Source of the DNA: an uncultured candidate division Zixibacteria bacterium
GTDB lineage: Bacteria; Zixibacteria; MSB-5A5; GN15; FEB-12
Length of the DNA: 64,000 nucleotides
Direction of reading: 5' to 3'
Assembly (NCBI GenBank): GCA_963806185.1
Contig: CAWDXE010000001.1
Span: 207,512 to 271,511 of the forward strand
The translations under genes and the position numbers were made by a program. Under the pieces are notes generated by a model that saw only the letters and a program-made list of their open reading frames with translations, had not been told where the DNA came from and did not search any database. Below are positions 12,280 through 51,409 of this stretch, one piece after another (within the stretch, counting starts at the first letter, position 1; each line of letters begins with the position of its first letter).

Positions 12280-14544
12280 GTGCCCTGGGCATGGCGACAG
12301 AGCATATACATGATTAGTTCCATACGACGTACGCAAACTAAGATCCTTCTGTTAATACTCATTCTGGGGGCAGGCTTCGCGATCGGCCTCGGGGTGGCTT
12401 TCCACGAGCAGTCACGACTCGAACAGAACATGCTCGTCGAGCGTCAGCGTGAAAAGGCCGACCTTCTCCGCGAGGTGGTGCGGCAGAAGTCCGAATCCCT
12501 GCATATGTTCACTGACGACTACAGTCGTTGGGACGACATGATTCGTTTTATCGATACCCACCCGGTCGATTCCCAATGGGCCAGGGAGAACCTGGATGTC
12601 GCTATCGCCAACTTCGGCGGCCAGACCGTGATGGTCTTCGACAGCAAATTCAATCCGATATTCGCCACCACGGGAAGCGTCCGAAGGGCCGATGAACAAC
12701 TACCTATTGCGGCGGTCTGCCGCCAAGTTCTCTCCGGTGTTCCTTTTCAACACTTCTATCTACGACAACCGACCGGCGTATTCGAACTCTTCACCGCTCC
12801 GGTACAGCCAACGAAGGATATCGAGCGAAAGTCAACACCACGCGGATATTTCGTCACCGGCTACTTCTGGGAAGACTCGTTGCTGAATTGGCTGTCGTTG
12901 CGAACGGGGACGGTCACCACGCTGGCGGGAATTGACGACCACGGCGAATTTGCCGCGCTGTCCCTGGGTGAGAACGGCGCTTTGATAGCTTACACACCGC
13001 TGATCGGTCCGGATGGACGGCCGGTTGCGGCCCTGGAGAGCCGCTATCACTCGGAGGTGTTCGCTGAGCAGGTGGCCTTGATTCACCGGCAAGTGGCGGC
13101 CCTGGCCATGTTCGGTGCGGTGGTGGTCGCAGTGCTCTTACTATCCCTGTACGCCTGGGTCAGTCGCCCCCTGGAAATCATCAATACCGGTCTCAACACC
13201 CAATCGGGCGAACCGCTACTGCAGCTCACGTCACAAACGGACGAATTCGGCCAGATCGCCCGACTCATAACCACCTCGTTTTCCCAACGGCTGGCGCTGG
13301 TCGAGGAAATCGTGGAAAGGCGACAGGCCGAACGAAATGCCCATGAGAGCAAACGGGCGCTGAGTTCATTCATCAGTAATCTGCCCGGTATGGCTTACCG
13401 GTGCCGCAACGACGTCGAACGAACAGTCGAATATGTCAGCGATGGTTGTGTCGGCGTTACCGGTTTCACCGCCGATTACTTCACGCTCAAGCAGAGTCTC
13501 TCGCTCAATAAACTCATTCACATGGGTGATCGCGACCAGGTGCGACTGACGATCGAATCGGCCGTGGCCTCGCGCCAGAGTTATGCGCTGACCTATCGGA
13601 TCAACGCAGCTGATAAATCCGAACGCTCGGTCCTCGAACAGGGTCGGGCCGTGTATGCGTCCGACGGAAAAGTGACGGCTTTGGAAGGGATCATTCTCGA
13701 AATCACTGATCGAGTCGAAGCGGAACGGGAACGGGCTTTCCTCCAGAACAAGCTCAACCGGGCCGAGCGGGTTCAGGCTCTCGGACTCCTGGCGGGAGGA
13801 GTTGCTCATGATCTCAACAACATGCTCGCGCCGGTGATGGCCTATCCCGATCTGATATTATCCAAACTACCCGAAAACGATCCCCTGCGACCCAAGCTCA
13901 TGATTATCAGGGATGCAGCTCAACAGGCGGTGGATGTCGTTCAGGACCTCCTGACCATGGCCCGACGAGGCCGTATCGAGATGACGTCGGCCAATCTCAA
14001 TGACGTTGTGGAAAGGTACACGCATTCCGCCAATTTCCTCCAACTGACAGCCAAGCATCCCGATGTGGCCGTAGTCATAGACCTCGCCCCCGACATGGAT
14101 TCTATTGGCGGATCGGTGACGCACTTGAACAAGGCGCTCATGAACATCGTGGTAAACGCCTTTGACGCCATGAGTCGAGGGGGACAGCTCACTATTCGTA
14201 CGCGCCAACGCAACGTCACGGAACTTGCCGACGGCCACCGCATTATCCCCGGCGAATATATCATCCTGTCCGTGTCCGACACCGGCGTAGGCATTCCACC
14301 CGAAGACATGAAAAAGATCTTCGAGCCCTATTTCTCGCGGAAGCAGATGGGCACCAGCGGCACGGGACTCGGACTTGCCGTGGTATACGGTACGGTGAAA
14401 GATCATCACGGATATTACGATATTATTTCGCAGGTTGGCGAAGGGACCGAGTTCATCCTGTACTTCCCAGCCGAGAATCAATCTACGGGCGTCGACGCCG
14501 ACGGCTCACGAGTATCGACTTTGGCCACCCCTAAAGCAATTTAA
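12280..14544 (+). CDS. sensor histidine kinase (TM–periplasmic sensor–TM–PAS–HisKA–HATPase_c)
   Basis: Two TM segments flank a ~240-aa periplasmic domain. The PAS region contains 'FISNLPGMAYRCRND…'. H-box 'HDLNNMLAPVMAYPDLIL'. N/G-box 'LMNIVVNAFDAM…SVSDTGVGIPPEDMKKIFEPYFS…GTGLGLAVV'. Confidence 0.8.
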   Translation: MPWAWRQSIYMISSIRRTQTKILLLILILGAGFAIGLGVAFHEQSRLEQNMLVERQREKADLLREVVRQKSESLHMFTDDYSRWDDMIRFIDTHPVDSQWARENLDVAIANFGGQTVMVFDSKFNPIFATTGSVRRADEQLPIAAVCRQVLSGVPFQHFYLRQPTGVFELFTAPVQPTKDIERKSTPRGYFVTGYFWEDSLLNWLSLRTGTVTTLAGIDDHGEFAALSLGENGALIAYTPLIGPDGRPVAALESRYHSEVFAEQVALIHRQVAALAMFGAVVVAVLLLSLYAWVSRPLEIINTGLNTQSGEPLLQLTSQTDEFGQIARLITTSFSQRLALVEEIVERRQAERNAHESKRALSSFISNLPGMAYRCRNDVERTVEYVSDGCVGVTGFTADYFTLKQSLSLNKLIHMGDRDQVRLTIESAVASRQSYALTYRINAADKSERSVLEQGRAVYASDGKVTALEGIILEITDRVEAERERAFLQNKLNRAERVQALGLLAGGVAHDLNNMLAPVMAYPDLILSKLPENDPLRPKLMIIRDAAQQAVDVVQDLLTMARRGRIEMTSANLNDVVERYTHSANFLQLTAKHPDVAVVIDLAPDMDSIGGSVTHLNKALMNIVVNAFDAMSRGGQLTIRTRQRNVTELADGHRIIPGEYIILSVSDTGVGIPPEDMKKIFEPYFSRKQMGTSGTGLGLAVVYGTVKDHHGYYDIISQVGEGTEFILYFPAENQSTGVDADGSRVSTLATPKAI

Positions 14545-14753: not shown

Positions 14754-17309
14754 GTGATTCATCGTATCCGCACTCGTGTCATCGCAGTTGTTTGTCTTTT
14801 GGCAGCGATTGCCGTGGCGGGGGTTGTGGCTGTCCAGTTCGCCGTAACCGATGAGTTAAGAGCCCTCCTGCACGATCGCCGTATTGACATTGAGGCGTGG
14901 ACCGATCGCGTTCTCAAATTGAACGGCAAGTCACTGGAGGCGATGGCCTATGATTACTCGTACTGGGACGAGATGGTCGATTTCCTCGGAAAGTCTGATT
15001 CCGCCTGGGCGCTTGACAATATCTCCGCGTCGTTAGGGACGTACAATGCAAACGTGGTGTGGTTAGTTCAGCTTGACGGAAGTTTGCATCACCTCTCGAC
15101 CGATGAGAACTGCCCTTTGCTTACCGCGGAAATAGCGGCGAATCTCATCTCGGTACGCACGCTTGGCGCGGAGCCGTTCCGTCACTTCTTCACAACGATT
15201 CCAGATGGTCTTCTTGAGATCCGGACAGCACCCATCCAGCCGAGTAGCGATATCGAGCGCAAGACCACCCCTCGAGGATACCTGTTGGTCGGCAGGATAT
15301 GGAATCGTGCCTGCCTCGACAATCTGGAGTCACTGCTGGAAGCCAAACTGGAGCTCTGTTCGCCCCAGAGTGATTCGGCACTTACTTCTGCTGCCAATGA
15401 AGATATTCGGGCCGGCATCCTTCGCACTGGATATGTACTGCGTGATATGGATGGCAAGCCGCTGGCGGTGTTAATGAGTCTGACAAAGACACCAATGATT
15501 TCGGAAGTGGCCCACGAGTCGGACCGAACGGTGTACAGTGTCGCGCTGCTGGCCGGACTGTTCTTGATCAGTTTGTGGTTTGCGATTACCCGCTGGGTGG
15601 TACGGCCGCTCGGGCATGTCTCAAGTGCTCTGCAGGGAGTGGAGCCCGAGTCATTGGCGCATCTGCACTCGTCCGGCGCGGAGTTTTCCGAAATTGGCAC
15701 GCTCATTTCACGATACTCGGCATCCGAACGCGCCCTGCAGGAAAGCCAGCGGTCGCTGCAGACGCTCTTTTCAAACCTGCCGGGGATGGCCTACCGCTGT
15801 GCCAACGACAATTACTGGACTATGGAGATGGTGAGCGACGGCTGTACTGACCTTACCGGCTATCAAGTGTCGGACTTGACCGACAATCGTCAGGTGTCGT
15901 TCGGCGAGTTGATCGTCGCCGATGATCGGAAGATGGTGTGGGACTCGGTGCAGGCGGCCCTGGATTTGCATCGTCCGTTTCACTTGCTCTACGGAATCCG
16001 GCATCGCGATGGGACCATCAGGTTTGTCGAAGAGCACGGTCGGGGTGTATTTGACAACGAGGACAAACTCCTGGCGCTTGAGGGGTTCATTGCAGATATC
16101 ACCGAGCGCCGGAAAGCGGAGTCGGAACAGGCGGAGCTTCGCGCCCAGCTCGAAACGGCGCGGCGCCTGGAATCACTGGGCATTCTCGCCGGCGGCGTGG
16201 CTCATGATCTGAACAACATGCTCGGCCCGCTGGTGGCGTATCCGGAAATGATTCTGGAATCGCTGCCGCCGGACAGTAATGTACGCGATTCAGTGGCCCA
16301 GCTCGGCCGCTCGGCCGAGATGGCGGCCAATGTCATCCAGGATCTGCTCACGCTGGCACGACGAGGTCGATACAAAATGTGTGCCACCGATGTGAATGAA
16401 ATCGTAACCAGCTATATTTCATCGCCCAGCTTCCAAATGCTCAAGGGCAAACACCAGAACGTCCTGGTGCACACTGTTCTTGAGGAGAATCTGCCGGCAA
16501 TAAACGGGTCAGCCACTCACTTGTTCAAGGTCCTCATGAATCTGGTGGTGAATGCCTTTGACGCAATGTCGGACGGAGGGGTACTGCGCATGACGACCGG
16601 GCGCCGCATCCTGACGGAGGCCCCGGCCGGCAACGAATCGCTGGCAGCAGGCGAATACGTCGTTCTGAGCATCTCGGATACCGGCGCCGGAATCGCCGAG
16701 GCAGACAGAGCACGGATCTTCGAACCGTATTTTTCGACCAAGAAGATGGGCGGCAGTGGGACAGGCCTTGGTCTGGCAATTGTCCATGGAATCGTCAAGG
16801 ATCACAACGGGGCAGTTCTGATTATGTCCGAGGTAGGACACGGCACGGCAATGGAGATATTCCTGCCGGTTACGACCTGTCCAACCCGGACGGTCGCCGA
16901 AGCCAACGAGAGTTTACTCGGCACCGGGCACATACTGATTGTGGATGACATGGCGGAGCAACGCGCGCTGGCTTCGCACCTCCTCACCAGCCTGGGGTAT
17001 ACCACAGGGTCGGTGTCAACCGGGACTGCGGCGACGGAGTATGTCGCCCGGCACAAAGTTGATCTGGTCGTTCTGGATATGCTCCTGGAACCGGAGATGG
17101 ACGGTCTGGACGCATTGCGCGAAATCCGCCGCGCCCAACCTGACGTTGCGGTTGTCCTTGTTTCGGGCTACGCCGCGACGGAGCGGGTACACCTGGCCCT
17201 GGAGGCCGGGGCATCCTCGCTCGTACCGAAGCCATTCACGCGCGATACACTGGGCAGAGCGGTTCTGGCTGCACGGCGTGGGCAACATCAGCCGACGGTC
17301 CAGGTCTGA
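14754..17309 (+). CDS. hybrid sensor histidine kinase/response regulator (paralog of 12280..14544 with C-terminal REC domain)
   Basis: It shares the periplasmic domain with the upstream kinase ('DYSYWDEMVDF', 'IERKTTPRGY'), as well as PAS, H-box 'HDLNNMLGPLVAYPEMIL' and HATPase_c. The C-terminal receiver is 'ILIVDDMAEQRA…VDLVVLDMLLEPEMDGLDALREIRR…VVLVSGY…KPF'. GTG start. Confidence 0.8.
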   Translation: MIHRIRTRVIAVVCLLAAIAVAGVVAVQFAVTDELRALLHDRRIDIEAWTDRVLKLNGKSLEAMAYDYSYWDEMVDFLGKSDSAWALDNISASLGTYNANVVWLVQLDGSLHHLSTDENCPLLTAEIAANLISVRTLGAEPFRHFFTTIPDGLLEIRTAPIQPSSDIERKTTPRGYLLVGRIWNRACLDNLESLLEAKLELCSPQSDSALTSAANEDIRAGILRTGYVLRDMDGKPLAVLMSLTKTPMISEVAHESDRTVYSVALLAGLFLISLWFAITRWVVRPLGHVSSALQGVEPESLAHLHSSGAEFSEIGTLISRYSASERALQESQRSLQTLFSNLPGMAYRCANDNYWTMEMVSDGCTDLTGYQVSDLTDNRQVSFGELIVADDRKMVWDSVQAALDLHRPFHLLYGIRHRDGTIRFVEEHGRGVFDNEDKLLALEGFIADITERRKAESEQAELRAQLETARRLESLGILAGGVAHDLNNMLGPLVAYPEMILESLPPDSNVRDSVAQLGRSAEMAANVIQDLLTLARRGRYKMCATDVNEIVTSYISSPSFQMLKGKHQNVLVHTVLEENLPAINGSATHLFKVLMNLVVNAFDAMSDGGVLRMTTGRRILTEAPAGNESLAAGEYVVLSISDTGAGIAEADRARIFEPYFSTKKMGGSGTGLGLAIVHGIVKDHNGAVLIMSEVGHGTAMEIFLPVTTCPTRTVAEANESLLGTGHILIVDDMAEQRALASHLLTSLGYTTGSVSTGTAATEYVARHKVDLVVLDMLLEPEMDGLDALREIRRAQPDVAVVLVSGYAATERVHLALEAGASSLVPKPFTRDTLGRAVLAARRGQHQPTVQV

Positions 17310-22092: not shown

Positions 22093-22121
22093 TTGACAAT
22101 CGTACGATTTCACGGTATACT
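22093..22121 (+). promoter_or_regulatory. sigma70-like promoter (TTGACA–17 bp–TATACT) ~490 nt upstream of paralog A
   Basis: A perfect -35 hexamer, a 17-bp spacer and a -10 with one mismatch. Whether this organism uses the sigma-A consensus is unknown (FCB bacteria often do not). Coordinates ±2. Confidence 0.35.
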
Positions 22122-22605
22122 TTTATGTGCCGGAGACTGTATAGATGTTTTTGTAAATAGACCAGTTATACGCGTTCGTGTCGGGGTTGGACGACTCCTG
22201 CCGATTCGCGCTTCGAAGCACATATTTGGGTAACCATTACCGGCGCTTCTGCGTCGCCGGAAAGAGTGACCGTGATTGCAGTGTTGACAAGCGGTAATCC
22301 CCATACCGCGATGGCAACGACCCTGAGCATTGGGGTCGTCGGGCCAGTTATTTATCTTTTGATTGTATTTGCAGTTCAGAATTACGTCCGATTACACGTG
22401 CAGAATTGGCATCGGAAACAGTGTTACTCCGCTCTGCCGGGCAGCGTCGTGATATCGCGCTGCAGGAAAGGAGGTATTTCGATGCAATGAGCCCGCTGAT
22501 CGGCGTTGCGGGTGGCACGAACGCCGACCGAGCTGAGGCAAGATGTAAGCGCTGTGCTGCAGAGCGGAGCGCTGATCGAACATTCAGGAATCGAAAGGAA
22601 TGAAA

Positions 22606-25600
22606 ATGATCAGGAAGCTTACAGTGTTGCTCGTCCTTAGCCTGATTGCGATCGCGTTTATCGCGGTTTCCATCGACGCTAAGTCGGTTTTCGACAAAGG
22701 CAAGCGTGTCGTCGACGAGCGGACCAATAAAGTCACGACCTTCAGTTTCACGGGCAAACGTCCTCTCGTGGCCCGTGGCGACGTACCCGAGCTCCCCACG
22801 CCGACCACGTCGAGCGCCGTCCGCTCATCGCTGGGCGTTCCGGCGACTGCCGGACAGTCGGCGTCTCCGGGATTTACGGTTGACGTATCGTATAATGACG
22901 ACCAGTACATTCCGTCGGCCGGTCACCAGGTCGAATGGCGGGGTACGTCGCCGTACGTGCAATTCGCGTATGGCAACGCCAATTCGAAGGGAGATATCAG
23001 CCGATTCGGCTATAACGTGTATGACCCGGTTCTGGGCAACTGGCCGCGCACGGCGGAAGTTGGCTGCGAGATTCAGGGTGCCGGCGATATCGGGACCCAG
23101 GTCGACATGTCGCTCAATTCGAGCGGATTTGTGGTGATTGGCGGCGTGGACGGAACGACCACGGCCACCCAGGACAACCACTTTTTCTTCCAGACGGCGA
23201 AGTTCAGCTGTACGTGGGGCACCGGCACGAAGATAGCGGCGAGCCAGTACAATGTGAACTTCCTGGCGTCGACAAACCTGCTGCACCACCCGCGCATAGA
23301 GTCGCAGACCTGGGCTGGTCAGACCTACACGCACGTGGTGGCGGTAGAGAGCAAAGTGCAGGATGTGACGACAGAGTTCCGTCGCAACACGCTGCATTAT
23401 TTCCGCAAGGTAGGGACGGCACAGGCCGGGACCTGGACCGGTCCGGTCACGCTTGACACGATCGCGTCGGTGTCGAATTCCCAGCGGGTCAACGCAGCCA
23501 GCATCGTGTCCTCGCGGGTGTCGCCGAAAGTGGCCGTCGTGTATGTAGTACCGACGGCTGAGGGTTTAGCCCATCAGCAGCGGTATGACGCGGACATCTG
23601 GTACACCGAGTCTGACTCGGTGGGCGCCACCTGGGGACCGCGGGTCAACATGACCGGTTTCCATCATGACGTCGCCTCCAAAACATCTTTTATGGGATCG
23701 GTCGGTTTCTACGATACGCAGGGTTTCCTGCACATCATTTTTGATGCTACCGACGTTCCTGCCGGCGCGTATGACCCGGCGTCCTCGTACTTCTGGGGAG
23801 ATTTCTCGAACAGCCTCTATCACTGGTCGAAGCGTGTGGCTGGGACGTACGCTGGCGGCACGATCGCCAAGATCCACAACTCTGAATGGGGCATTGATCT
23901 CAACACCGAGGTTTGCGGATTCGGCTCTCCGGGTACCGGATACACCGGGTTCTATTCGGTGGCCGAGTGCGACGGTCGTTTGTACGTCATATTCACCCAG
24001 TATCTTGACTATTTTGGTATTTTCACCGGCACGTCGCACATTGATGACTGCGCGGTGGGTGCGTCGGACCGTCTCTACGCCGCCAACGGCGAGGTGTGCG
24101 TCTGCGTCTCGTCCGATCGTGACGGTATGCTCTGGGATGCCGCACGTAACCTGACGAACACGTATACGCCTAACTGCGACTCGGCGGGCGGAACCGGCGG
24201 CGAATGCGCCAACGACACGCGGCCGACCGTATCGCGGTATGGAATGAACGTCAATTCGTTTGACACCAATGCGGTGCACGTGAACCTGACCTGGCCGGGG
24301 ACGGATCTGATCGTTCCGGCGGGTGGTACGGCCGATTCGATGTTCCTGCATGTCTTCTATACGGCCGACAAGTTCCCGGCGCCGGGCTGGCGCGATACGA
24401 CGACCTACAACCGGGCGACGCCGAACCCGCTCAAGTGGATGCGTCTGGCTTGTGTCGATCCTATCAGTGCGCCGCAGATTCGGGTGTCGCCGAACCTGAT
24501 CGCCTATCCGGAGTACACCAAGCATAATACGCAGAAGAGCGTGACGGTCACGGTGACCAACGAAGGGAACGAAGATCTGCATGTGACCACGATCGGGACG
24601 GACAAGGTCAGTCCGATCACGCCGAACTGGCTGGCCACCTCGGTGGGAAGCCTGACGGTCGCGGCGGGTCAATCGAACACAGGAACGTTTAACGTCCTGC
24701 TTAACGGTCCCGGCCTGATCAACAGCCCGGGGACGGTAGTGGCGCTGAACGGTGAAGTGTATTTGTTATCGGATGCACCGGCGCCGCGCGACTCGGTATC
24801 GATCTTTATCGAGAACTTCCTGGTGGCCGACACGGTGGTGGGTCTGGACTTTGACACGGTGGTGACCTGCGGCGTGGAGTTGATGGTGGACAACCATGGG
24901 AACATGGGCAGCCAGGGTCAGGGCAAGGTCAATCTGGACTTTGTCGGCTCGGGTGAGTGCGACACGTCGGGGGCGAAAACCTACCTGTATGACGGTGGAC
25001 CGATGTTGATTCGGAACCTGGGTGGTGGTTCGTTTGTGTACAGCAACGCGTTGTTTGAAGATGACTTCAGCACGGCCCAGTCGTTCAAGCCGTTGACGGG
25101 TCCGGTGCCGGCCAGTTTCGTGGGTCCGGCGGGCTCTGACGGTTATTTCACGGGCACTTTTGTGACTCGTGACACGGCGGTGGGCATGCAGTTGCGGTAC
25201 TACGGTCCGACGGACGGTGGCGACAACTGCGACTTCGTCATTCAGCAGATGAAGGTGTTCAAGATGACGCCGGGGACGCTGACGGGAATCACGGTTGGTC
25301 AGGGGATCGACTGGGATATTCGTTCGGACAGCGGTGCGCAGAACTCGTTCAATCGTTCGGGGGTAGCGACCGACTCGTCGTTTGTGTACCAGCGTGGTGT
25401 GGACACGGGCGCGGTGACCGGTTGCAATCCTGATTCGGGTCGTTATGGCGCCCAGGCGGTGCTGGGGATGTACCTGAAGTCGGACAGTGTGGCCAACAAT
25501 TGCGCCACGAGCAACATTTACGGTATGTACGCGCAGTACAATGACACGTTGTTCAAGTACGACACGTTGTCGGAGAATCTGGAAGCGAACTTCTACTGGA

Positions 25601-26046
25601 ACGAGATGGGGATCGCCGGCTATCGCAGTCGTGCGGGGGTTCGCGATTTCCATATGATCACGACCTACAAGTACAACACGAGTTTGAGCAACACCGACAC
25701 GTTGACCTGTTGGACGGTGATGACGTCCGTGCGGAACGGGACGTTGACCGATCTGGCGGCCAATGTGGCGGCGGCCAAGGCCTGGTTCTTTGCCAATCTG
25801 CGTCCGGGTTGCGGATCGTGTTGTGTCGGCAGCGTGGGTAATATTGATGGTGACATCACTGACGGCGTTGACGTTGGTGACCTGACCAAGTTGATCAACA
25901 ACCTGTTCATCACCTTTGAAGCGATAGCCTGTCCGGCGGAAGCCAACTGTGATGGCGATCCGCTGAACAGTGTCGACGTAGGTGATTTGACGGCACTGAT
26001 TAACAACCTGTTTATTACGTTCGCGCCGCTTCCTGCCTGTCAGTAA
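22606..26046 (+). CDS. secreted BNR/Asp-box repeat protein with Ig-like domain and C-terminal tandem dockerin-like (EF-hand) motifs, paralog A
   Basis: Signal peptide. Asp-box motifs 'TESDSVGATWG' and 'VSSDRDGMLWD'. An Ig-like segment 'KSVTVTVTNEGNEDLHVTTIG'. The C-terminus 'GNIDGDITDGVDVGDLTKLINNLFITF…NCDGDPLNSVDVGDLTALINNLFITF' is a duplicated dockerin-like calcium-binding segment. AAAGGA lies upstream. Confidence 0.75.
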   Translation: MIRKLTVLLVLSLIAIAFIAVSIDAKSVFDKGKRVVDERTNKVTTFSFTGKRPLVARGDVPELPTPTTSSAVRSSLGVPATAGQSASPGFTVDVSYNDDQYIPSAGHQVEWRGTSPYVQFAYGNANSKGDISRFGYNVYDPVLGNWPRTAEVGCEIQGAGDIGTQVDMSLNSSGFVVIGGVDGTTTATQDNHFFFQTAKFSCTWGTGTKIAASQYNVNFLASTNLLHHPRIESQTWAGQTYTHVVAVESKVQDVTTEFRRNTLHYFRKVGTAQAGTWTGPVTLDTIASVSNSQRVNAASIVSSRVSPKVAVVYVVPTAEGLAHQQRYDADIWYTESDSVGATWGPRVNMTGFHHDVASKTSFMGSVGFYDTQGFLHIIFDATDVPAGAYDPASSYFWGDFSNSLYHWSKRVAGTYAGGTIAKIHNSEWGIDLNTEVCGFGSPGTGYTGFYSVAECDGRLYVIFTQYLDYFGIFTGTSHIDDCAVGASDRLYAANGEVCVCVSSDRDGMLWDAARNLTNTYTPNCDSAGGTGGECANDTRPTVSRYGMNVNSFDTNAVHVNLTWPGTDLIVPAGGTADSMFLHVFYTADKFPAPGWRDTTTYNRATPNPLKWMRLACVDPISAPQIRVSPNLIAYPEYTKHNTQKSVTVTVTNEGNEDLHVTTIGTDKVSPITPNWLATSVGSLTVAAGQSNTGTFNVLLNGPGLINSPGTVVALNGEVYLLSDAPAPRDSVSIFIENFLVADTVVGLDFDTVVTCGVELMVDNHGNMGSQGQGKVNLDFVGSGECDTSGAKTYLYDGGPMLIRNLGGGSFVYSNALFEDDFSTAQSFKPLTGPVPASFVGPAGSDGYFTGTFVTRDTAVGMQLRYYGPTDGGDNCDFVIQQMKVFKMTPGTLTGITVGQGIDWDIRSDSGAQNSFNRSGVATDSSFVYQRGVDTGAVTGCNPDSGRYGAQAVLGMYLKSDSVANNCATSNIYGMYAQYNDTLFKYDTLSENLEANFYWNEMGIAGYRSRAGVRDFHMITTYKYNTSLSNTDTLTCWTVMTSVRNGTLTDLAANVAAAKAWFFANLRPGCGSCCVGSVGNIDGDITDGVDVGDLTKLINNLFITFEAIACPAEANCDGDPLNSVDVGDLTALINNLFITFAPLPACQ

Positions 26047-26120
26047 GCAGTCGAACCGATAGACGGTGACGATGAGATACGGCCACCTCCCCCCGGGGGG
26101 TGGCCGTACGTGTTTGCGGA
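22680..26120 (+). repeat. tandem duplication unit A (~3.4 kb), including the 3' flanking hairpin
   Basis: Direct repeat of 26697..30135 with period ~4017 bp. The 5' ~700 nt and 3' ~1.9 kb are ≥99% identical and the middle ~0.8 kb ~75–80% identical. The duplicated 3' flank contains the palindrome GGCCACCTCCCCCCGGGGGTGGCC. Confidence 0.8.
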
Positions 26121-26623
26121 AAAAATCCAGAGGATCGGCATGCTTCCGGGTCGACGGGGGTCGGGCGTTCCCGGGCTGGAAGCGGATTCAGGACAAAATC
26201 GGTCAAGGGGAATTCCTTAGGCCACTAGTTGCTTGCAGGACAAGGGCCCCGCTGAAATTGGCATTGACAAAATCCGTCGCTGCATATACATTTCGTATGC
26301 TGGAGAGGTTTGCCTTAGGGACAGAGTATCCGGGCCCGGGCCTTCAACGCTACTTCGTCTCGAAGATAGATTTCTACAATTTATTGATCGTGCATACGTG
26401 AGAACATAACCGACAATCGACCTTGGACGATAAGGTCGCCTCCGTCGTAGTCACGATATCGGCGGGACAAGGAAAGGAGGTAATCTCAGCAACGAGTAAC
26501 ACGGCGTTCGGCCCTCGGCTTTGGGCCATCGGACGCGCATGCTGTGCGTGTAGAAATGGACACGCAGAGCATTGCTAGCTTCTTCTTTGGGACAATTATT
26601 TGGGAATCGAAAGGAGCACGGGA

Positions 26624-29600
26624 ATGATAAAGAGACTTCCCACGCTGTTTATTTGCGTTCTTGTTGCAGTGGCCTTCATTGCTGCTTCCGTGGATGCAAA
26701 ATCGAATTTTGACAAAGGCAAGCGTGTCGTCGACGAGCGGACCAATAAAGTCACGACCTTCAGCTTCTCCGGTAAGCGCCACCTGGTTGCTCAGGATGAC
26801 GTACCGGAGCTCCTCACGCCGACCACGTCGAGCGCCGTCCGCTCATCGTTGGGCGTTCCGGCGACTGCCGGACAGTCGGCGTCTCCGGGATTTACGGTTG
26901 ACGTATCGTATAATGACGACCAGTACATTCCGTCGGCCGGTCACCAGGTCGAATGGCGGGGTACGTCGCCGTACGTGCAATTCGCGTATGGCAACGCCAA
27001 TTCGAAGGGAGATATCAGCCGATTCGGCTATAACGTGTATGACCCGGTTCTGGGCAACTGGCCGCGCACGGCGGAAGTTGGCTGCGAGATTCAGGGTGCC
27101 GGCGATATCGGGACCCAGGTCGACATGTCGCTCAATTCGAGCGGATTTGTGGTGATTGGCGGCGTGGACGGAACGACCACGGCCACCCAGGACAACCACT
27201 TTTTCTTCCAGACGGCGAAGTTCAGCTGTACGTGGGGCACCGGCACGAAGATAGCGGCGAGCCAGTACAATGTGAACTTTTTGACCACGGCCAACCTGCT
27301 GCATCACCCGCGCATAGAGTCGCAGACCTGGGCTGGTCAGACCTACACGCACGTGGTGGCGGTAGAGAGCAAAGTGACGGACCTGACGACAGAGTTCCGT
27401 CGCAACACGCTGCATTATTTCCGCAAGGTAGGGACGGCACAGGCCGGGACCTGGACCGGTCCGGTCACGCTTGACACGATCGCGTCGTCGTCCAACTCTC
27501 AGCGCGTGAACTGCGCCAGTATCGTAGCCTCCCGCACCTCACCTAAGGTGGCGGTGGTCTATACCGTACCGACGGCCGAAGGTTTGGCGCATCTGCAACG
27601 GTACGACAACGATGTCTACTTTACGGAATCAGATTCCGTGGGCGCGACCTGGGGCGCGCGCGTCAATATGACCAACTACACGCACACGACAGCATCATTT
27701 ACGGCAAACCTCGGTGCTTTTGGTCTGTACGATTCGCAGGGGTTCCTGCACATTTTGTTCAGCGCACAGCCGGTTGATGCTCTTCCGTATGCTCCCACGT
27801 CGTCCTTCTTCTGGGGAGATTTCTCCTGCTCGCTGTTCCACTGGTCGAAGCGTGTGGCCGGGTCGAATGCCGGCGGCACGATCGCCAAGGTACACAATGC
27901 CGAGTGGGGCATCGACGTTAACACCGAAGTCTGCGGATTCCCGAGCCCGGGTTCTTCTTATCTTGGGTTCTATTCGCTGGCCGAGTGCGACGGTCGTTTG
28001 TATGCGGTGTTCAGCCAGTACAACGACTACTATGGCAACTTCGGCACGTCGCACATTGACGACTGCGCGGTGGGTGCGTCGGACCGTCTCTACGCCGCCA
28101 ACGGTGAAGTCTGCGTAACCGTATCATCCGATCGTGACGGTATGCTCTGGGATGCTGTTCGTAACCTGACGAACACGTATACGCCTAACTGCGACTCGGC
28201 GGGCGGAACCGGCGGCGAATGCGCCAACGACACGCGCGCCACGGTATCGCGGTACGGAATGAACGTCAATTCGTTTGACACCAATGCGGTGCACGTGAAC
28301 CTGACCTGGCCGGGGACGGATCTGATCGTTCCGGCGGGTGGTACGGCCGATTCGATGTTCCTGCATGTCTTCTATACGGCCGACAAGTTCCCGGCGCCGG
28401 GCTGGCGCGATACGACGACCTACAACCGGGCGACGCCGAACCCGCTCAAGTGGATGCGTCTGGCTTGTGTCGATCCTATCAGTGCGCCGCAGATTCGGGT
28501 GTCGCCGAATCTGATCGCCTATCCGGAGTACACCAGGCACAATACGCAGAAGAGCGTGACGGTCACGGTGACCAACGAAGGGAACGAAGATCTGCATGTG
28601 ACCACGATCGGGACGGACAAGGTCAGTCCGATCACGCCGAACTGGCTGGCCACCTCGGTGGGAAGCCTGACGGTCGCGGCGGGTCAATCGAACACAGGAA
28701 CGTTTAACGTCCTGCTTAACGGTCCCGGCCTGATCAACAGCCCGGGGACGGTAGTGGCGCTGAACGGTGAAGTGTATTTGTTATCGGATGCACCGGCGCC
28801 GCGCGACTCGGTATCGATCTTTATCGAGAACTTCCTGGTGGCCGACACGGTGGTGGGTCTGGACTTTGACACGGTGGTGACCTGCGGCGTGGAGTTGATG
28901 GTGGACAACCATGGGAACATGGGCAGCCAGGGTCAGGGCAAGGTCAATCTGGACTTTGTCGGCTCGGGTGAGTGCGACACGTCGGGGGCGGACACCTACC
29001 TGTATGACGGTGGACCGATGTTGATTCGGAACCTGGGTGGTGGTTCGTTTGTGTACAGCAACGCGTTGTTTGAAGATGACTTCAGCACGGCCCAGTCGTT
29101 CAAGCCGTTGACGGGTCCGGTGCCGGCCAGTTTCGTGGGTCCGGCGGGCTCTGACGGTTATTTCACGGGCACCTTTGTGACTCGTGACACGGCGGTGGGC
29201 ATGCAGTTGCGGTACTACGGTCCGACGGACGGTGGCGACAACTGCGACTTCGTCATTCAGCAGATGAAGGTGTTCAAGATGACGCCGGGGACGCTGACGG
29301 GAATCACGGTTGGTCAGGGGATCGACTGGGACATTCGTTCGGACAGCGGTGCGCAGAACTCGTTCAATCGTTCGGGGGTAGCGACCGACTCGTCGTTTGT
29401 GTACCAGCGTGGTGTGGACACGGGCGCGGTGACCGGTTGCAATCCTGATTCGGGTCGTTATGGCGCCCAGGCGGTGCTGGGGATGTACCTGAAGTCGGAC
29501 AGTGTGGCCAACAATTGCGCCACGAGCAACATTTACGGTATGTACGCGCAGTACAATGACACGTTGTTCAAGTACGACACGTTGTCGGAGAATCTGGAAG

Positions 29601-30061
29601 CGAACTTCTACTGGAACGAGATGGGGATCGCCGGCTATCGCAGTCGTGCGGGGGTTCGCGATTTCCATATGATCACGACCTACAAGTACAACACGAGTTT
29701 GAGCAACACCGACACGTTGACCTGTTGGACGGTGATGACGTCCGTGCGGAACGGGACGTTGACCGATCTGGCGGCCAATGTGGCGGCGGCCAAGGCCTGG
29801 TTCTTTGCTAATCTGCGTCCGGGTTGCGGATCGTGTTGTGTCGGCAGCGTGGGTAATATTGATGGTGACATCACTGACGGCGTTGACGTTGGTGACCTGA
29901 CCAAGTTGATCAACAACCTGTTCATCACCTTTGAAGCGATAGCCTGTCCGGCGGAAGCCAACTGTGATGGCGATCCGCTGAACAGTGTCGACGTAGGTGA
30001 TTTGACGGCACTGATTAACAACCTGTTTATTACGTTCGCGCCGCTTCCTGCCTGTCAGTAA
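26624..30061 (+). CDS. secreted BNR/Asp-box repeat protein with Ig-like domain and C-terminal tandem dockerin-like motifs, paralog B
   Basis: Same architecture as 22606..26046. It is near-identical at both ends and diverged in the middle (aa ~230–500). AAAGGAG lies 8 nt upstream of ATG 26624. Confidence 0.75.
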   Translation: MIKRLPTLFICVLVAVAFIAASVDAKSNFDKGKRVVDERTNKVTTFSFSGKRHLVAQDDVPELLTPTTSSAVRSSLGVPATAGQSASPGFTVDVSYNDDQYIPSAGHQVEWRGTSPYVQFAYGNANSKGDISRFGYNVYDPVLGNWPRTAEVGCEIQGAGDIGTQVDMSLNSSGFVVIGGVDGTTTATQDNHFFFQTAKFSCTWGTGTKIAASQYNVNFLTTANLLHHPRIESQTWAGQTYTHVVAVESKVTDLTTEFRRNTLHYFRKVGTAQAGTWTGPVTLDTIASSSNSQRVNCASIVASRTSPKVAVVYTVPTAEGLAHLQRYDNDVYFTESDSVGATWGARVNMTNYTHTTASFTANLGAFGLYDSQGFLHILFSAQPVDALPYAPTSSFFWGDFSCSLFHWSKRVAGSNAGGTIAKVHNAEWGIDVNTEVCGFPSPGSSYLGFYSLAECDGRLYAVFSQYNDYYGNFGTSHIDDCAVGASDRLYAANGEVCVTVSSDRDGMLWDAVRNLTNTYTPNCDSAGGTGGECANDTRATVSRYGMNVNSFDTNAVHVNLTWPGTDLIVPAGGTADSMFLHVFYTADKFPAPGWRDTTTYNRATPNPLKWMRLACVDPISAPQIRVSPNLIAYPEYTRHNTQKSVTVTVTNEGNEDLHVTTIGTDKVSPITPNWLATSVGSLTVAAGQSNTGTFNVLLNGPGLINSPGTVVALNGEVYLLSDAPAPRDSVSIFIENFLVADTVVGLDFDTVVTCGVELMVDNHGNMGSQGQGKVNLDFVGSGECDTSGADTYLYDGGPMLIRNLGGGSFVYSNALFEDDFSTAQSFKPLTGPVPASFVGPAGSDGYFTGTFVTRDTAVGMQLRYYGPTDGGDNCDFVIQQMKVFKMTPGTLTGITVGQGIDWDIRSDSGAQNSFNRSGVATDSSFVYQRGVDTGAVTGCNPDSGRYGAQAVLGMYLKSDSVANNCATSNIYGMYAQYNDTLFKYDTLSENLEANFYWNEMGIAGYRSRAGVRDFHMITTYKYNTSLSNTDTLTCWTVMTSVRNGTLTDLAANVAAAKAWFFANLRPGCGSCCVGSVGNIDGDITDGVDVGDLTKLINNLFITFEAIACPAEANCDGDPLNSVDVGDLTALINNLFITFAPLPACQ

Positions 30062-30135
30062 GCAGTCGAACCGATAGACGGTGACGATGAGATACGGCCA
30101 CCTCCCCCCGGGGGTGGCCGTACGTGTTTGCGGGA
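26697..30135 (+). repeat. tandem duplication unit B
   Basis: See unit A. There are only two coding differences in the last ~640 codons (K/D in 'SGAKTY' vs 'SGADTY'; K/R in 'TKHNTQ' vs 'TRHNTQ'). Confidence 0.8.
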
Positions 30136-30153: not shown

Positions 30154-31545
30154 TCAAACCCTCACAGCAGCGCGCTCGACGGTGACGGCCCCCACAAGGG
30201 AATCCACCCAGAAATAGCTTTCCTGGTGAAACGGCAGGTATACGAGTTGCCAAGCCGTGGGCATGAACTTGGCGGCCAATAACGTCGACTGTCTCTCGAT
30301 GGCGGCCCGGGTGAGCAGGGCATCGGCCAGATTGATCGCCTCATCATATGACACCGTCACGGGCGGGAGCTTGGACGGTACCTCGTCGGAGAGTCCCCGC
30401 GAGATCAAGTCAGCGCCGGAGGCACGACGGACCAGTCGGAAGGCGGCTTCAACGTTGGGCATCTCGAAGGCCGGGAGCATCAGCCACTCCGGCGGATATT
30501 GATAGCCGAAGAATCGCATGATTTCCTTCCGATCGAGATCGCGAATCTGAAATGCCCAAAACGGGAGATACGAATCACCGGTGAAGCCCGGCAGGCAGTG
30601 AGCCGAAGTGACTGTGCCGGCACAGTTGCCGAGAAGAGTCCAGCGACCGCAGCTCGCGCAATGGTACACGAGTGAAACGGTTGATTCAAAATCGGTTCCG
30701 CAGGTAGCACAGCAAAGGGATTCAACAATGACAGTCTGGACCGGGGTATTCACGGTGGGCGGTTCCGGCCCGGATACATTTTGGTCAGGTTGTTCAGCGC
30801 ACGAGACCACATTGCCGGTAACACCATCGACGATAAGTCGAAAGGCACTGGACGAATAGCACTCGGCCACCATATACGGAAAGTGGATTAGTGAAAAGAC
30901 AGGATTGAGAAGTTCAGTCCGATTGACGCCGGAACCGGGCGAGTCCAGCGAATCGAGCCGATCCAGACCGGTTCGGATTCTCGTGGCCGCCTCCTCCCTC
31001 GGGCGAACGACCGACAAGACATCAAACGCGGCTTCCCGATACGGCTCCGCAAAGGGAAACAGCTTAAGGTATGCGGCGCGCAAACCGAGCGTATCAGGAA
31101 AGTCAGCCGATCCCGCACCGGCGGCTATGGCGTTTACGTAGGGAGTCAGGCTGACCGTGCGAACGTTTTGAGTCTCCTCCACGTCAGCGGATGGATCGAT
31201 CTCGTTGGCGTGGATGCGCGTGACACTGGAGTTACGGATCTTGAGAAGCGAAGCGTCGATTTTCCAGTACGGGTAGTACACCCATTTCATCAGGAGGTCA
31301 TGGCCCGTGAGGGGCAAGCCGTGTTCCTTGAGATAGCGATCAATCAGAAACCGGAGTTGTGATTCGGTCCTGGTGACGCGCGCCACCCAAGCCGCTGCCC
31401 CCTGGGGCATGACAATGCGCAGGGAGGCGCCACAATGGGCACAGCGGGTCGCGCGGATGGAATCCAGGAATTCCAATTCAGCGCCGCAGCCGGGGCAGGT
31501 GCAACCGAAAACGAGTCCGGCGTCAGGCCGACGTTGAATCGCCAT
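30154..31545 (-). CDS. zinc-ribbon domain protein, hypothetical (two CxxC…CxxC ribbons each followed by an aromatic-rich domain)
   Basis: '[12 protein letters not shown]…RCAHCGASL' and '[10 protein letters not shown]…HCASCGRW'. No known catalytic motif. Its first 200 nt overlap the 3' end of the SPFH gene in another frame, so the true start is uncertain or a frameshift is present. Confidence 0.5.
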
Positions 31546-32657
31546 TGTTCACCGACGTTGCCACAATTTCCACAGAACTTGGAGCCGGGGATCAACTCGG
31601 CTTTGCAATTGGGGCAATGCACCTTTTCATCCAGGCGATGACCGCAATAGAGGCAGAAATTCGCCTCGGTAGGAATTTCCCGCTGACAAGCGAGGCAGCG
31701 ATTCTGAGCCACCATCGGGTGGCCGCAGCGGTAGCAATACCGTGATTGTTCCGGAGTATCGGTATGGCACTTGGGACAGGTGACGGTGGCTACCGGCTCG
31801 CGCCTGAGTTCTGTCTGATCGGGCGAGAAGACCTTGGTCATGAGACTAGGCAGCATGACACCGACTCCAGCCGCCATGCCGATACCCGCACCGGTGCCTG
31901 CGGCGCCACCGGTAGCCCCCAGTCCTTTCGCCATCTCGTATTTCATGAACTTGTCGAGGTCACCTACCGCCTCAATGCCGGAGCGCTGGTCGATCATCTG
32001 CCCTACTTCATCCGGCGGAGTGATCGAGGAGATGAAGAAATCGACGAGGGTCAGGCCGTACTTTTCGAATTCGACTCGAACGATGTCTTTGAAGTTTTCG
32101 GCCAGTTCAGTATACTTGGCCGGCAATTCGAGAAGGGTATCGAGCGTCTCGCCAAGCAGGTCGTTCATCCGGGCGACGATGACGTCGCGGAGGTAGTCCT
32201 GTATGTCCGACGTCGTGTACTTCGCCTGACGGCCGACGATGGAATTCAGGAACAGCATCGGTTGAGTGATGCGCATGGTGAAGGCTCCGTGGCCACGGAG
32301 ACGAACCAGGCCGAGTTTACTGTCCTTGAAAGTGACAGGCAGTTTGGTCCCCCATTTGAGTTCGGTAAATGTCTTGAGGTTAACGAAGTAGACCTCGGCC
32401 CGAAAGGGCGAGGTGAAGCCAAAGGGGAACGAAAGCAAGCGAGTGAGTATTGGGATGTTCAAGGACGAAAGGGTATGGCGTCCAGTGGTGAAGGAATCGC
32501 AGGCGTGGCCGTCCTTGAAGAAGATCGCCATCTGACTGTCGCGGACGATGAGTTGTGCGCCGAGTTTGAAATCGGCTGATCCCTCCTGCGGCAGACGATA
32601 GATCATTTCTTTGCCGGTCGGATCGACCCATTCGATGACTTCGATCAAAAGTGACAT
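31344..32657 (-). CDS. SPFH/band-7 domain protein with C-terminal tandem zinc ribbons (YdjI-like)
   Basis: The start [10 protein letters not shown] is preceded by GGAG. An SPFH region (…[32 protein letters not shown]…) and a Gly-rich segment are followed by 'CPKCH…YCYRCG', 'CLACQ…FCLYCG' and 'CPNCK…FCGNCG'. The last ~65 aa are a low-complexity P/A-rich tail suggesting read-through after a frameshift. Confidence 0.65.
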
Positions 32658-32822
32658 GGCTGCTCCTTCAATACTGTAACTGCTTGCTATATGGCCGTTT
32701 TCGGCAATTCGCGGCGATATTAGACTTGCCTCGGCGACGGTCCGGGGGTGTCCTTTTCGCTTGTGGCATATGCAGGTTGGGCCTGTAGAATTGGGAAACT
32801 TCTGACCGAGGTAGCGGGTTAA

Positions 32823-33428
32823 GTGGGGAGTGAAAGCGTACAATCTTGTAACAGAAGATACTACGAATGGAACGATCAGATCGAGAATCTTCAGAAGATG
32901 TATCACGACCTCCTGGTCGGCGTCGGTGAGGATGTCAGTCGCGAAGGGCTGGTCAAGACCCCCGAACGGGCAGCCCGGGCAATAGAGTTTCTGACCCGTG
33001 GCTACACGCAAGATGTCGAAGAGATCATTAACGACGCCTATTTCCAGTCGGATACTGACGAGATGATCCTGGTAAAGGATATCGAATTGTACTCGTTGTG
33101 CGAACATCATCTTCTGCCCTTCATCGGAAAGTGTCATGTGGCGTACATGCCCATGGGGCGAATCATCGGTCTGTCGAAGATTGCGCGGATTGTGGACGTC
33201 TTCGCGCGACGTCTTCAGGTTCAGGAACGTCTGACCAAGCAGATAGCAGACACCTTGATGACCCATCTGGGGGCACGCGGCGTTGCCGTGGTGATCGAGG
33301 CTCAGCATTTGTGCATGATGATGCGAGGTGTGGAAAAACAGAATTCAGTGATGAAGACCTCGTGTTTGCTGGGCGCATTTCGCAATTCCCCGTCGACCCG
33401 AGCGGAGTTCCTCAGTCTGATCAAGTAG
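32823..33428 (+). CDS. folE: GTP cyclohydrolase I (FolE)
   Basis: '[51 protein letters not shown]…[15 protein letters not shown]' matches the conserved FolE active-site region. GTG start at 32823; an alternative ATG lies at 32898. Confidence 0.8.
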
Positions 33429-33463: not shown

Positions 33464-34714
33464 ATGCTGTTTACACTGAGCAAGCGGTTCGAATTGTCCT
33501 CATCGCGGCGGCTATTTCTGCCTGATCGGTCGAGTGAACAAAACGCCCGCCTCTACGGCGGCAGCGCCGCCGGTCAATGGGGGCAAGGGTGCAATTACGT
33601 GGTCAGCCCGGTGTTCAGCGGACCGATCGATCAGGCGACGGGCATGTTGATGAACGTATCGGAGGTGAAGCAGCGAGTCAACAGCCTGCTGAACGAACGG
33701 TACGATCACCGGTATCTGAATATGGATACCACACCATTTGACAGCATCCCCCCCACGCCGGAACTGGTCGCGCGGCAGATTCTACAGGAGATTCAACCGA
33801 TATTCGCCGACAGCCCGGCAAGGCCGGTAGCGGTACACCTGATGGAATCACCAGAGAGCGGGGCTACCGCCTATCTCGACGGGCGGATCGAGCGTGATAT
33901 TTGGCTTGATTTCTCGGCGGCGCGGCGGACTTGGTCACCTCATTTGTCCAGAGAGGAAAATGAAAAGCTGTTCGGTATATCGGCCCGGCCCAATGGCCAC
34001 GGTCACAACTATCGCCTCAGGATGGTGTTGAGCGGCACGTGGCACGAGGCGGAAGGAATCGTCATTGAGCAGCAGGAGATTGACAGTGCGGTGGCCTCGA
34101 TCCGAGAGAAATTCGATCATCAACACTTGAATCTCGACGTACCGGAGTTGAAGGGGCAACCGGTGACGACGGAGACGCTGGCCCGACTGATCTATCGGCT
34201 GGCGCATTTTGCTCTGCCGGTGGTTCGCGTGCAATTGTACGAATTACCCTGGTTCTTTGTGGAGCATCGGTCGGACAACTCGTTCAGCCTGGGGTATGAG
34301 AATTCATTCAGTGCGGCACACCGACTTCACTCGAATTACCTGTCGGAGGAAGCTAACCGGACAGTGTACGGGAAGTGCAACAATCCGAACGGCCATGGGC
34401 ATCACTATCGAGTGGAGATGACGATCGGCGGGCCGTTTGACGAACGGTCGGGGACACTTTTTGACCTGGGGCGGGCCGCGAGCGGCTTCGAGCGAGTGAT
34501 TACACCATGGCGGAACAGACATCTCGACGTGGAGACCGAAGATTTCAAAAGTGTACCCTCAACGGGCGAGAACATCGCTGAACGGCTATGGGAGAAGCTG
34601 GACGGCGCATACGGTGGTCGGCTGACCCGGCTGCGGTTGTGGGAGACCATGAACAATCGATTCACGCTTCGGAATTACGGCCTGCCGGCGCCATCAATCA
34701 TGCAAAATATCTAG
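33464..34714 (+). CDS. triple-domain 6-pyruvoyl-tetrahydropterin synthase (PTPS/QueD T-fold) fusion protein
   Basis: Three successive ~130-aa T-fold units. The second carries 'ARPNGHGHNYRL', the third 'CNNPNGHGHHYRVEM' (Cys-x5-HGH zinc motif), and the first is degenerate. Immediately downstream of folE. Confidence 0.7.
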   Translation: MLFTLSKRFELSSSRRLFLPDRSSEQNARLYGGSAAGQWGQGCNYVVSPVFSGPIDQATGMLMNVSEVKQRVNSLLNERYDHRYLNMDTTPFDSIPPTPELVARQILQEIQPIFADSPARPVAVHLMESPESGATAYLDGRIERDIWLDFSAARRTWSPHLSREENEKLFGISARPNGHGHNYRLRMVLSGTWHEAEGIVIEQQEIDSAVASIREKFDHQHLNLDVPELKGQPVTTETLARLIYRLAHFALPVVRVQLYELPWFFVEHRSDNSFSLGYENSFSAAHRLHSNYLSEEANRTVYGKCNNPNGHGHHYRVEMTIGGPFDERSGTLFDLGRAASGFERVITPWRNRHLDVETEDFKSVPSTGENIAERLWEKLDGAYGGRLTRLRLWETMNNRFTLRNYGLPAPSIMQNI

Positions 34715-51303: not shown

Positions 51304-51409
51304 AGATCCTCCAGAGGTATCATAGATAATATAGTCGAATTGCGGGAAGTCACAAGGTTGAAACAAGAAGATCGGCGCGATGGCGATGGAGACGCTAACC
51401 AATTGTGGA

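Follow-up and report, generated by a model that had tools for sequence, protein, structure and literature searches.

A tandem pair of predicted propeller-dockerin genes in a Zixibacteria genome, probably homogenised in part by gene conversion

Interlocus gene conversion in bacteria is exemplified by the tufA/tufB genes and by rRNA operons. A mosaic of near-identical 5′ and 3′ segments around a diverged middle is found in the Helicobacter pylori Hop adhesin genes babA and babB, where it is kept by intragenomic recombination; the middle of the bab genes is the variable ligand-binding part, and swaps change the phenotype. Concerted evolution in prokaryotes is documented, and its cases have been surveyed (PMC6053082). 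Here we describe a tandem gene pair, A and B, in 64,000 nucleotides (nt) of contig CAWDXE010000001.1 from an uncultured candidate division Zixibacteria bacterium (assembly GCA_963806185.1, positions 207,512 to 271,511; this whole stretch is called the window). A short note made from the sequence alone, the original prediction, had drawn attention to the pair as secreted BNR/dockerin proteins with conserved-variable-conserved identity.

We read A and B as an old tandem duplicate in which recent interlocus gene conversion, in two or more tracts, has homogenised part of the sequence, and which encodes secreted propeller/dockerin proteins that we infer to act on glycans; the probability that we give this reading is about 0.78. 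The conversion mechanism is ordinary and already well known, and what is new is its place, an uncharacterised protein family. As in known interlocus conversion, diverged paralogues share near-identical blocks in which synonymous sites are included, the tracts ignore domain borders and enter non-coding DNA, and converted paralogue segments are as similar as orthologues (in related arrays). Unlike the tuf genes and rRNA operons, A and B encode accessory secreted proteins, their partial homogenisation leaves an old centre, and the pattern recurs in many arrays with a 3′ preference. The pair also differs from babA/babB: no other part of the protein is as conserved in the family as its middle, which is subject to purifying selection and gives no hint of cassettes being swapped.

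Mosaic identity of the two copies

Both open reading frames (ORFs) were confirmed as adjacent, co-directional genes with a shared layout, in agreement with the original prediction. A blastn comparison returned one high-scoring segment pair (22688-26119 against 26707-30133, identity 93.5%), and the mosaic was read from a codon-threaded alignment of A and B, with codon numbers taken from A. The features of the pair are listed below.

22600..26046, + strand: gene A, 1148 amino acids (aa); the second ATG, at 22606, is an equally plausible start
26624..30061, + strand: gene B, 1145 aa; the ORF opens upstream at a TTG at 26600
22093..22121, + strand: promoter-like site upstream of gene A, TTGACA-17-TATACT, 11/12, consensus match only
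26264..26292, + strand: promoter-like site upstream of gene B, TTGACA-17-TACATT, 10/12, consensus match only
Signal peptide and codons 29-78: diverged, 18 aa differences
22832..23261, + strand: putative conversion tract 1, copy A; codons 79-220, 430 nt with 0 differences, covering the linker end and blades 1-2
26850..27279, + strand: putative conversion tract 1, copy B; exact counterpart of A 22832-23261
23260..24240, + strand: unconverted central block, copy A; codons 221-547, ~980 nt, blades 3-7, with 61 aa and ~200 nt differences
27278..28255, + strand: unconverted central block, copy B; counterpart of A 23260-24240
24241..26119, + strand: putative conversion tract 2, copy A; 1879 nt from codon 548 to the 3′ flank, with 8 substitutions and 1 indel
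28256..30133, + strand: putative conversion tract 2, copy B; includes the hairpin
26079..26107, + strand: GC-rich hairpin 3′ of gene A, ACGGCCACC...GGTGGCCGT, then GTGTTTGCGG; within the homogenised tract
~30093-30122, + strand: hairpin 3′ of gene B, within tract 2 of B

The alternation of conserved, variable and conserved blocks is sharp in the codon alignment. The longest run of identity between A and B was 476 nt, whereas 2000 permutations gave 76 nt on average and 164 nt at most, and the clustering of identity is far beyond chance. Uniform divergence along the pair, which the original prediction had set against its own reading, was excluded by base-level alignment. The near-identical 5′ block, put beforehand at ~700 nt, stands as a stretch of 92-100% identity, but perfect identity covers only ~430 nt of it.

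At the 3′ end, near-identity over the last ~1.9 kb and ~75 nt of flank was borne out. Tract 2 is 99.6% identical and runs from the end of the propeller through the Ig-like segment, the C-terminal conserved domain (C-domain) and the dockerin to a point 73 nt beyond the stop codon. Within codons 548-1148 there are 8 nt and 2 aa differences (K641R and K793D); the last ~640 codons, credited earlier with only two aa differences, actually hold 4, with 2 in the last 600. Identity in the flank runs 73 nt past the stop codon, across the hairpin, and ends abruptly at 26119/30133, with a 1-nt indel in a G-run as the sole exception. The hairpin after gene A is probably a terminator; a strict T-run terminator scan did not pick it up. 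Codon 793, two residues ahead of the invariant Y795, is AAA (Lys) in A (24976-24978) and GAC (Asp) in B (28991-28993). As two bases differ, a remnant that escaped conversion or a selected change seems likelier than a pair of new mutations.

The signal peptide and the centre are diverged, as had been claimed: aa identity is 82% in codons 221-547 and falls to 72% in the core (codons 301-470). Between the upstream regions of A and B (759 and 504 nt), the only matches are short and collinear and lie near a GGAAAGGAGGT box and the ribosome-binding site. Synonymous divergence (dS) and its ratio to nonsynonymous divergence (dN/dS) were calculated by the Nei-Gojobori method for each codon block.

Signal-peptide codons: dS saturated
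Codons 29-78: dS 0.46, dN/dS 0.15
Codons 79-220: dS 0, dN/dS not applicable
Codons 221-547 (whole centre): dS 0.70, dN 0.139, dN/dS 0.20
Codons 221-300: dS 0.23, dN/dS 0.26
Codons 301-400: dS saturated, dN/dS 0.07
Codons 401-500: dS 0.78, dN/dS 0.17
Codons 501-547: dS 0.30, dN/dS 0.13
Codons 548-1148: dS 0.012, dN/dS 0.19

Third positions follow the same profile, with 0/142 differences in codons 79-220, 115/326 (35%) in codons 221-547 and 6/601 in codons 548-1148. As constraint on the protein can neither erase synonymous differences nor homogenise a non-coding flank, the blocks must have different histories, that is, recombination has taken place. The passage of the homogenised tract 73 nt beyond the stop codon, followed by its abrupt end, points to a process at the DNA level, and the tract breakpoints fall within the propeller, away from domain borders. 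The duplication itself is old: synonymous sites are saturated in the signal peptide and in the core of the centre, hardly any of the upstream sequence can be aligned, and transversions outnumber transitions in the centre (118 against 85). Moreover, dS rises from 0.23-0.46 beside the tracts to saturation in the core, a gradient that suggests older, nested tracts. The suggestion in the original prediction that gene conversion homogenised the flanks is thus supported by dS of 0 and 0.012 in the flanks against ~0.7 to saturation in the centre, and by the recurrence of the pattern in related arrays.

The original prediction had offered a second cause for the mosaic, diversifying or functional divergence of a probably ligand-facing central domain. 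Diversifying selection on a ligand-facing centre was not supported. Across the blocks of the centre dN/dS is 0.07-0.26, and the substitutions are mostly conservative (I/V, Y/F, S/T) and evenly spread. They are not enriched in loops (33/185 outside beta-strands and 28/142 inside; Fisher p=0.67), and no adenine-specific substitution bias was found in the centre. When compared with 14 outgroup homologues, the protein is best conserved in its central block, at ~55% identity against ~46% for the 3′ part. Nor is the centre a domain of its own, since it makes up blades 3-7 within one propeller. Purifying selection acts on A and on B, indicating that both copies are probably functional. Their central blocks are mutual nearest relatives, their distances to the 14 outgroups are equal within 4 points, and GC content at third positions (GC3) in the block is 73% in both, which argues against a foreign import of the centre.

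The history that we propose begins with an ancient tandem duplication of a gene from a large uncharacterised family in Zixibacteria-type genomes. Later, non-reciprocal homologous recombination between the copies overwrote codons 79-220 and the stretch from codon 548 through the hairpin, and older nested conversion tracts with other end points may have left the graded edges. The centre may survive either since its divergence now blocks recombination or since selection keeps two slightly different propellers. The 0.43-kb and 1.9-kb identical repeats would also favour unequal crossing-over, and with it expansion or contraction of the array. So read, the pair shows partial concerted evolution in an uncultured phylum cleanly and in a form that can be quantified, and could serve as a textbook-style illustration.

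Related arrays and alternative explanations

The family to which A and B belong is large. Word-indexed homologue searches return 16-20 proteins, and an exhaustive profile search gives the fuller family size. By the word-indexed search 16 relatives were found, the nearest 47% identical, and every named one comes from a Zixibacteria metagenome-assembled genome (MAG). The exhaustive profile search gave 6023 matches at E<=1e-3, 3059 at E<=1e-10 and 550 at E<=1e-30 (counted as 50%-identity clusters); these include more than 100 full-length representatives, shorter proteins with Ig-like segment, C-domain and dockerin, and longer fusions. A scan of GTDB species representatives yielded 25 loci, several per genome, in MAGs that bear the label Zixibacteria or, in the case of some binned assemblies, 'uncultured Ignavibacteriales'. 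By tblastn over the loci, arrays of 2 to 4 or more copies proved to be the rule (L002, L003, L006, L011, L016, L018, L020, L024). Short MAG contigs often end within a family gene (L008, L010, L012, L014, L015, L017). The repeats evidently fragment short-read assemblies, and copy numbers in draft MAGs are probably underestimated.

Nucleotide identity between tandem neighbours in these arrays was as follows.

L003 genes 2 and 3: N-terminal part 66-84%, 3′ end 97-100%
L002 pair: body 50-70%, 3′ end 95%
L018 genes 2 and 3, and L020 genes 2 and 3: body ~55%, 3′ end 88-93%
L016 genes 1 and 2: body 61-80%, 3′ end 89%

Dispersed copies are mosaic too, with L019 and L025 ranging from 64% to 99% in patches, and L022 from 68% to 100%, again patchily, against genes 2 and 3 of L003. 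The clearest comparison comes from L018 and L020, which are orthologous three-gene arrays in two genomes. In the gene bodies, informative sites divide 826 orthologous to 6 within-genome, whereas in the last 85 codons the split is even (4 to 4), and the tails of paralogues (88-94%) resemble each other as closely as those of orthologues do (89-94%). It follows that the common ancestor of the paralogues is far more recent for the 3′ ends than for the bodies. Homogenisation is a habit of the family, with a preference for the 3′ end, and A/B is its most extreme example.

Several points weigh against reading A and B as a converted pair. The orthologue-versus-paralogue test rests on other arrays of the family, as the closest relative of A/B is only 47% identical. 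The two tracts do not differ statistically in age (0/426 nt and 8/1876 nt), and they could stem from a single discontinuous event. The centre, most conserved at the protein level, would naively be the easiest part to convert, so its escape needs selection or chance. Finally, consensus polishing may have over-homogenised near-identical repeats.

Among other explanations, the one that survives best is a recent duplication of the whole gene, after which the 5′ end and centre of one copy were replaced by recombination with a diverged allele from another strain or species, so that identity would be the original condition and divergence the mark of import. This would yield the same mosaic of two sequences, and the patchy mosaics of dispersed paralogues do show frequent recombination among family members. 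We nevertheless consider it quite unlikely. At least two imports would be needed, one covering the upstream region, signal peptide and codons 29-78 and another codons 221-547, and divergence tapers at the block edges instead of breaking off sharply. The centres are equidistant from all outgroups with identical GC3, and the near-unalignable upstream regions suit an old duplication. In L018/L020 the paralogue bodies predate speciation, and their tails are nonetheless homogenised. No donor was found in a search across 5.8 billion proteins, in which the next homologue of A/B was the 47% match.

An artefact of assembly or polishing, in which one gene or two strain alleles were laid in tandem or diverged copies were falsely homogenised, is very unlikely. 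The assembly hazard about which the original prediction had warned is a fair concern, given that many short MAG contigs break inside family genes, and exact-identity blocks are the expected product of cross-mapped polishing. The pair is known from one contig in one assembly; at 90% identity, the cluster of B contains A and B only. However, that contig is 1.10 Mb long and so probably derived from long reads. A and B have separate, non-homologous upstream regions, each with a promoter-like site and a ribosome-binding site, their signal peptides have diverged, and 8 copy-specific substitutions persist in the 1.9-kb block. Polishing cannot raise ~65% identity to 100%, and similar mosaic arrays occur in independent assemblies, among them the orthologous arrays of two MAGs. 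For other genomes the family remains a warning, as such arrays fragment or mislead MAG assemblies.

Programmed variation, with the flanks as recombination handles for central cassettes or the centre as the target of a diversity-generating retroelement, would account for a conserved-variable-conserved layout like that of babA/babB and for the mosaic nature of dispersed copies. We regard it as highly improbable. The window holds two full-length copies, each with a promoter-like site and a signal peptide, with neither silent cassettes nor a third copy of A/B. The centre is not hypervariable within the family, and its saturated dS reflects old neutral divergence rather than targeted mutagenesis. 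Adenine bias is absent, and no search aimed at a reverse transcriptase was made. Selection without recombination, with extreme purifying selection on the flanks and a relaxed or diversifying centre, is scarcely credible: the dockerin and C-domain do carry residues invariant across the family, but the idea is refuted by the third-position counts of the dS profile, by identity extending 73 nt into the non-coding flank, and by a centre with dN/dS of ~0.2, no loop enrichment and the highest conservation against outgroups, while a structural RNA constraint over 1.9 kb is not indicated by an Rfam scan of 21-31 kb, which gave zero matches.

Domain architecture and predicted function

The domains of the two proteins, in the same order in both, were placed as follows.

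Gene A, aa 1-28: Sec-type signal peptide, followed by a disordered linker to aa ~88
22864-24459, + strand: gene A, seven-bladed propeller, aa ~89-620
24460-24834, + strand: gene A, Ig-like sandwich, aa ~621-745
24835-25809, + strand: gene A, conserved C-domain, aa ~746-1070
25810-26043, + strand: gene A, Cys-rich double dockerin, aa ~1071-1148
26882-28474, + strand: gene B, propeller
28475-28849, + strand: gene B, Ig-like sandwich
28850-29824, + strand: gene B, C-domain
29825-30058, + strand: gene B, dockerin

A Pfam scan of A and B gave zero matches at E<=0.1 (no BNR and no dockerin), and an NCBIfam scan gave one weak match, choice_anch_D, at aa 624-699. When Pfam was run on 16 members and 10 relatives consisting of the C-terminal half only, just sub-threshold matches to Dockerin_1, BNR_2 and DUF7507 appeared, BNR_2 in 1 of the 16 members (E=0.12). 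The BNR and dockerin labels of the original prediction thus lack a Pfam or NCBIfam match, but they hold as remote homology with a 78-sequence profile (dockerin E=2.7e-6; Asp-box blade 7e-5 to 2e-4).

An AlphaFold (AF2) model of A was built from the 78-sequence alignment, with a mean predicted local distance difference test (pLDDT) score of 85.5 and a predicted TM-score (pTM) of 0.70. The model shows a signal or transmembrane helix at aa 3-26 and disorder up to aa ~88, and the N-terminus is that of a typical signal peptide. Seven four-stranded blades (aa ~89-620) are followed by a beta-sandwich (aa ~621-745), a mixed beta domain with two long helices (aa ~746-1070) and two short helices in the tail (aa 1092-1104 and 1127-1139). 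The fold neighbours of the model, with Z-scores, were as follows.

CylK (7ron): 26.7
PL42 rhamnose-glucuronate lyase (7esk): 26.0
GH145 BACINT_00347 (5mum): 25.6
Virginiamycin B lyase (2z2n): 24.6
YncE (3vgz): 23.8
PL25 ulvan lyase (5uam): 23.8
Generic WD40 propellers (various): up to 23.7

By its model, the A/B propeller has the same seven-bladed fold as CylK, the PL42 L-Rha-alpha-1,4-GlcA lyase, GH145 and PL25. Sequence identity to these enzymes is 10-12%, with no match at the sequence level; generic WD40 propellers come within ~3 Z units of them; and the enzymes are without the Ig-like, C-domain and dockerin extension of A/B. Sialidases were absent from the top 60 fold neighbours. With an earlier, weaker model, Foldseek had returned 6-bladed sialidases and 5-bladed GH43/GH32 enzymes at low TM-scores.

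One blade of the family propeller carries an Asp-box hairpin in the 'NIT' context, as in GH33 sialidases and BNR proteins, and in this blade the 78-sequence profile matches the sialidases of Treponema denticola, Vibrio cholerae and pneumococcus (NanA) at E=7e-5 to 1e-3. The two Asp-box positions of the family correspond to residues 338-345 and 504-512 of A, and 47/78 members have at least one strict motif. The SxDxGxTW motifs claimed for A and B are not strict in either protein; what they contain are two degenerate boxes (SDSVGATW at aa 338 and SSDRDGMLW at aa 504), which are canonical in many relatives. Unlike the GH33 propeller, that of A/B is seven-bladed rather than 6-bladed, and the FRIP motif ([FYW]R[IV]P) is absent from A, B and all 78 members. 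Sialidase identity was rejected on the seven blades, the missing FRIP motif and the failure of any curated sialidase or BNR model to pass. Two relatives, P0009 and P0043 (CP070824.1, Candidatus Zixiibacteriota), bear the NCBI name 'exo-alpha-sialidase', probably an over-annotation arising from the Asp-box. The name looks unjustified and should not spread in annotation.

The C-domain (~320 aa) is without a Pfam or PDB sequence match, and Y795, D858, D904, D906, R948 and D1016 are invariant or nearly so. The Ig-like segment, C-domain and dockerin also occur alone, as stand-alone proteins of ~430-590 aa (L004 5812-7536; L006 4283-5767 and 5709-7445; P0052, P0054, P0061 and others), suggesting that the C-domain is an independent functional unit. 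The stand-alone genes often adjoin full-length family genes.

The tail carries the repeat ...DVGDLTxLINNLF twice at the C-terminus. Over both repeats, the 78-sequence profile matched type I dockerins (4fl4 at E=2.7e-6; 1ohz and 2ccl at ~2e-3). With the Pfam dockerin model PF00404, the best relatives scored 17-21 bits against a cut-off of 22.9 and A and B gave no match; a precomputed PF00404 match exists on three long relatives. Like type I dockerins, the A/B module is C-terminal and consists of two tandem repeats of a calcium loop plus helix (F-hand). It differs from them in that each loop is 2 residues longer, the module is framed by cysteines (conserved at C1071, C1074/1075, C1111 and C1147) and the Pfam threshold is missed. 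Unlike the hosts of cellulosomal dockerins, the host of A/B is a Gram-negative-type bacterium of the Fibrobacteres-Chlorobi-Bacteroidetes (FCB) group.

The same Cys-rich tail was seen on non-propeller proteins (L018 11831-14269; L021 2311-4338 and 4329-6764; L006 20387-21394; L026 12602-14323; L023 8047-9822). Judged from these sequences, the Cys-rich double dockerin tail looks like a general export or anchoring module of Zixibacteria. The flavour of the tail sequence is lineage-specific, for example LYISFTPP, LFISYTPP or FITGEPP.

Together, these features suggest that the proteins of the family are probably tethered, extracellular and glycan-acting. The products would be exported by Sec, the predicted calcium-binding dockerin would anchor them to a partner on the cell surface or a scaffold, and the propeller, the C-domain or both would bind or cleave an extracellular glycan. 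Some findings temper this functional assignment: no curated family model reaches threshold, the C-domain is novel by sequence searches, and gene neighbourhoods of the relatives are not conserved across genomes and give no functional clue. A literature search for Zixibacteria with dockerin, sialidase or BNR found nothing relevant.

A more speculative extension, which we think unlikely, is that homogenisation of the 3′ ends is itself selected. Conversion would then keep the dockerins of paralogues, and perhaps their C-domains, matched to one lineage-specific anchor while the propellers are free to diverge in specificity, in a cellulosome-like display with the C-domain as a new catalytic or binding fold. 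Should the dockerin have a partner, Zixibacteria would possess a system of surface assembly that falls outside the Firmicutes cellulosome paradigm. As it stands, the pair flags a large family without a Pfam model, of secreted proteins of ~1150 aa with a novel conserved domain and a cysteine-framed dockerin variant. We consider the family moderately interesting and unsurprising for a candidate phylum.

Other genes in the window

The neighbours of A and B in the window are unrelated housekeeping or regulatory genes. The promoter-like site of gene A begins at 22093, which is also the start coordinate chosen in the original prediction.

12280-14544 and 14754-17309, both + strand: a second pair of tandem paralogues, CHASE4-PAS_3-HisKA-HATPase_c sensor kinases, of which the second adds a receiver domain
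6068-9577, - strand: 1169-aa beta-helix/NosD-like protein with a C-terminal sorting domain (Por_Secre_tail/CHU_C) of the type IX secretion system (T9SS) type
49864-51402, - strand: protein with a weak Por_Secre_tail match
30154-31545, - strand: zinc-ribbon protein, directly downstream of gene B
31344-33308, - strand: SPFH/Band-7 protein with double zinc ribbons
32823-33428, + strand: ORF resembling GTP cyclohydrolase I, by sequence look alone
33464-34714, + strand: 416-aa protein with three 6-pyruvoyl-tetrahydropterin synthase (PTPS) stretches

Together with A and B, the proteins with T9SS C-terminal domains indicate that this genome has two C-terminal modules on secreted proteins, the T9SS domain and the cysteine-framed dockerin. 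The GTP cyclohydrolase I-like ORF lies beside the PTPS protein. The zinc-ribbon ORF overlaps the SPFH/Band-7 ORF by ~200 nt, and the true start of the latter is probably further in.

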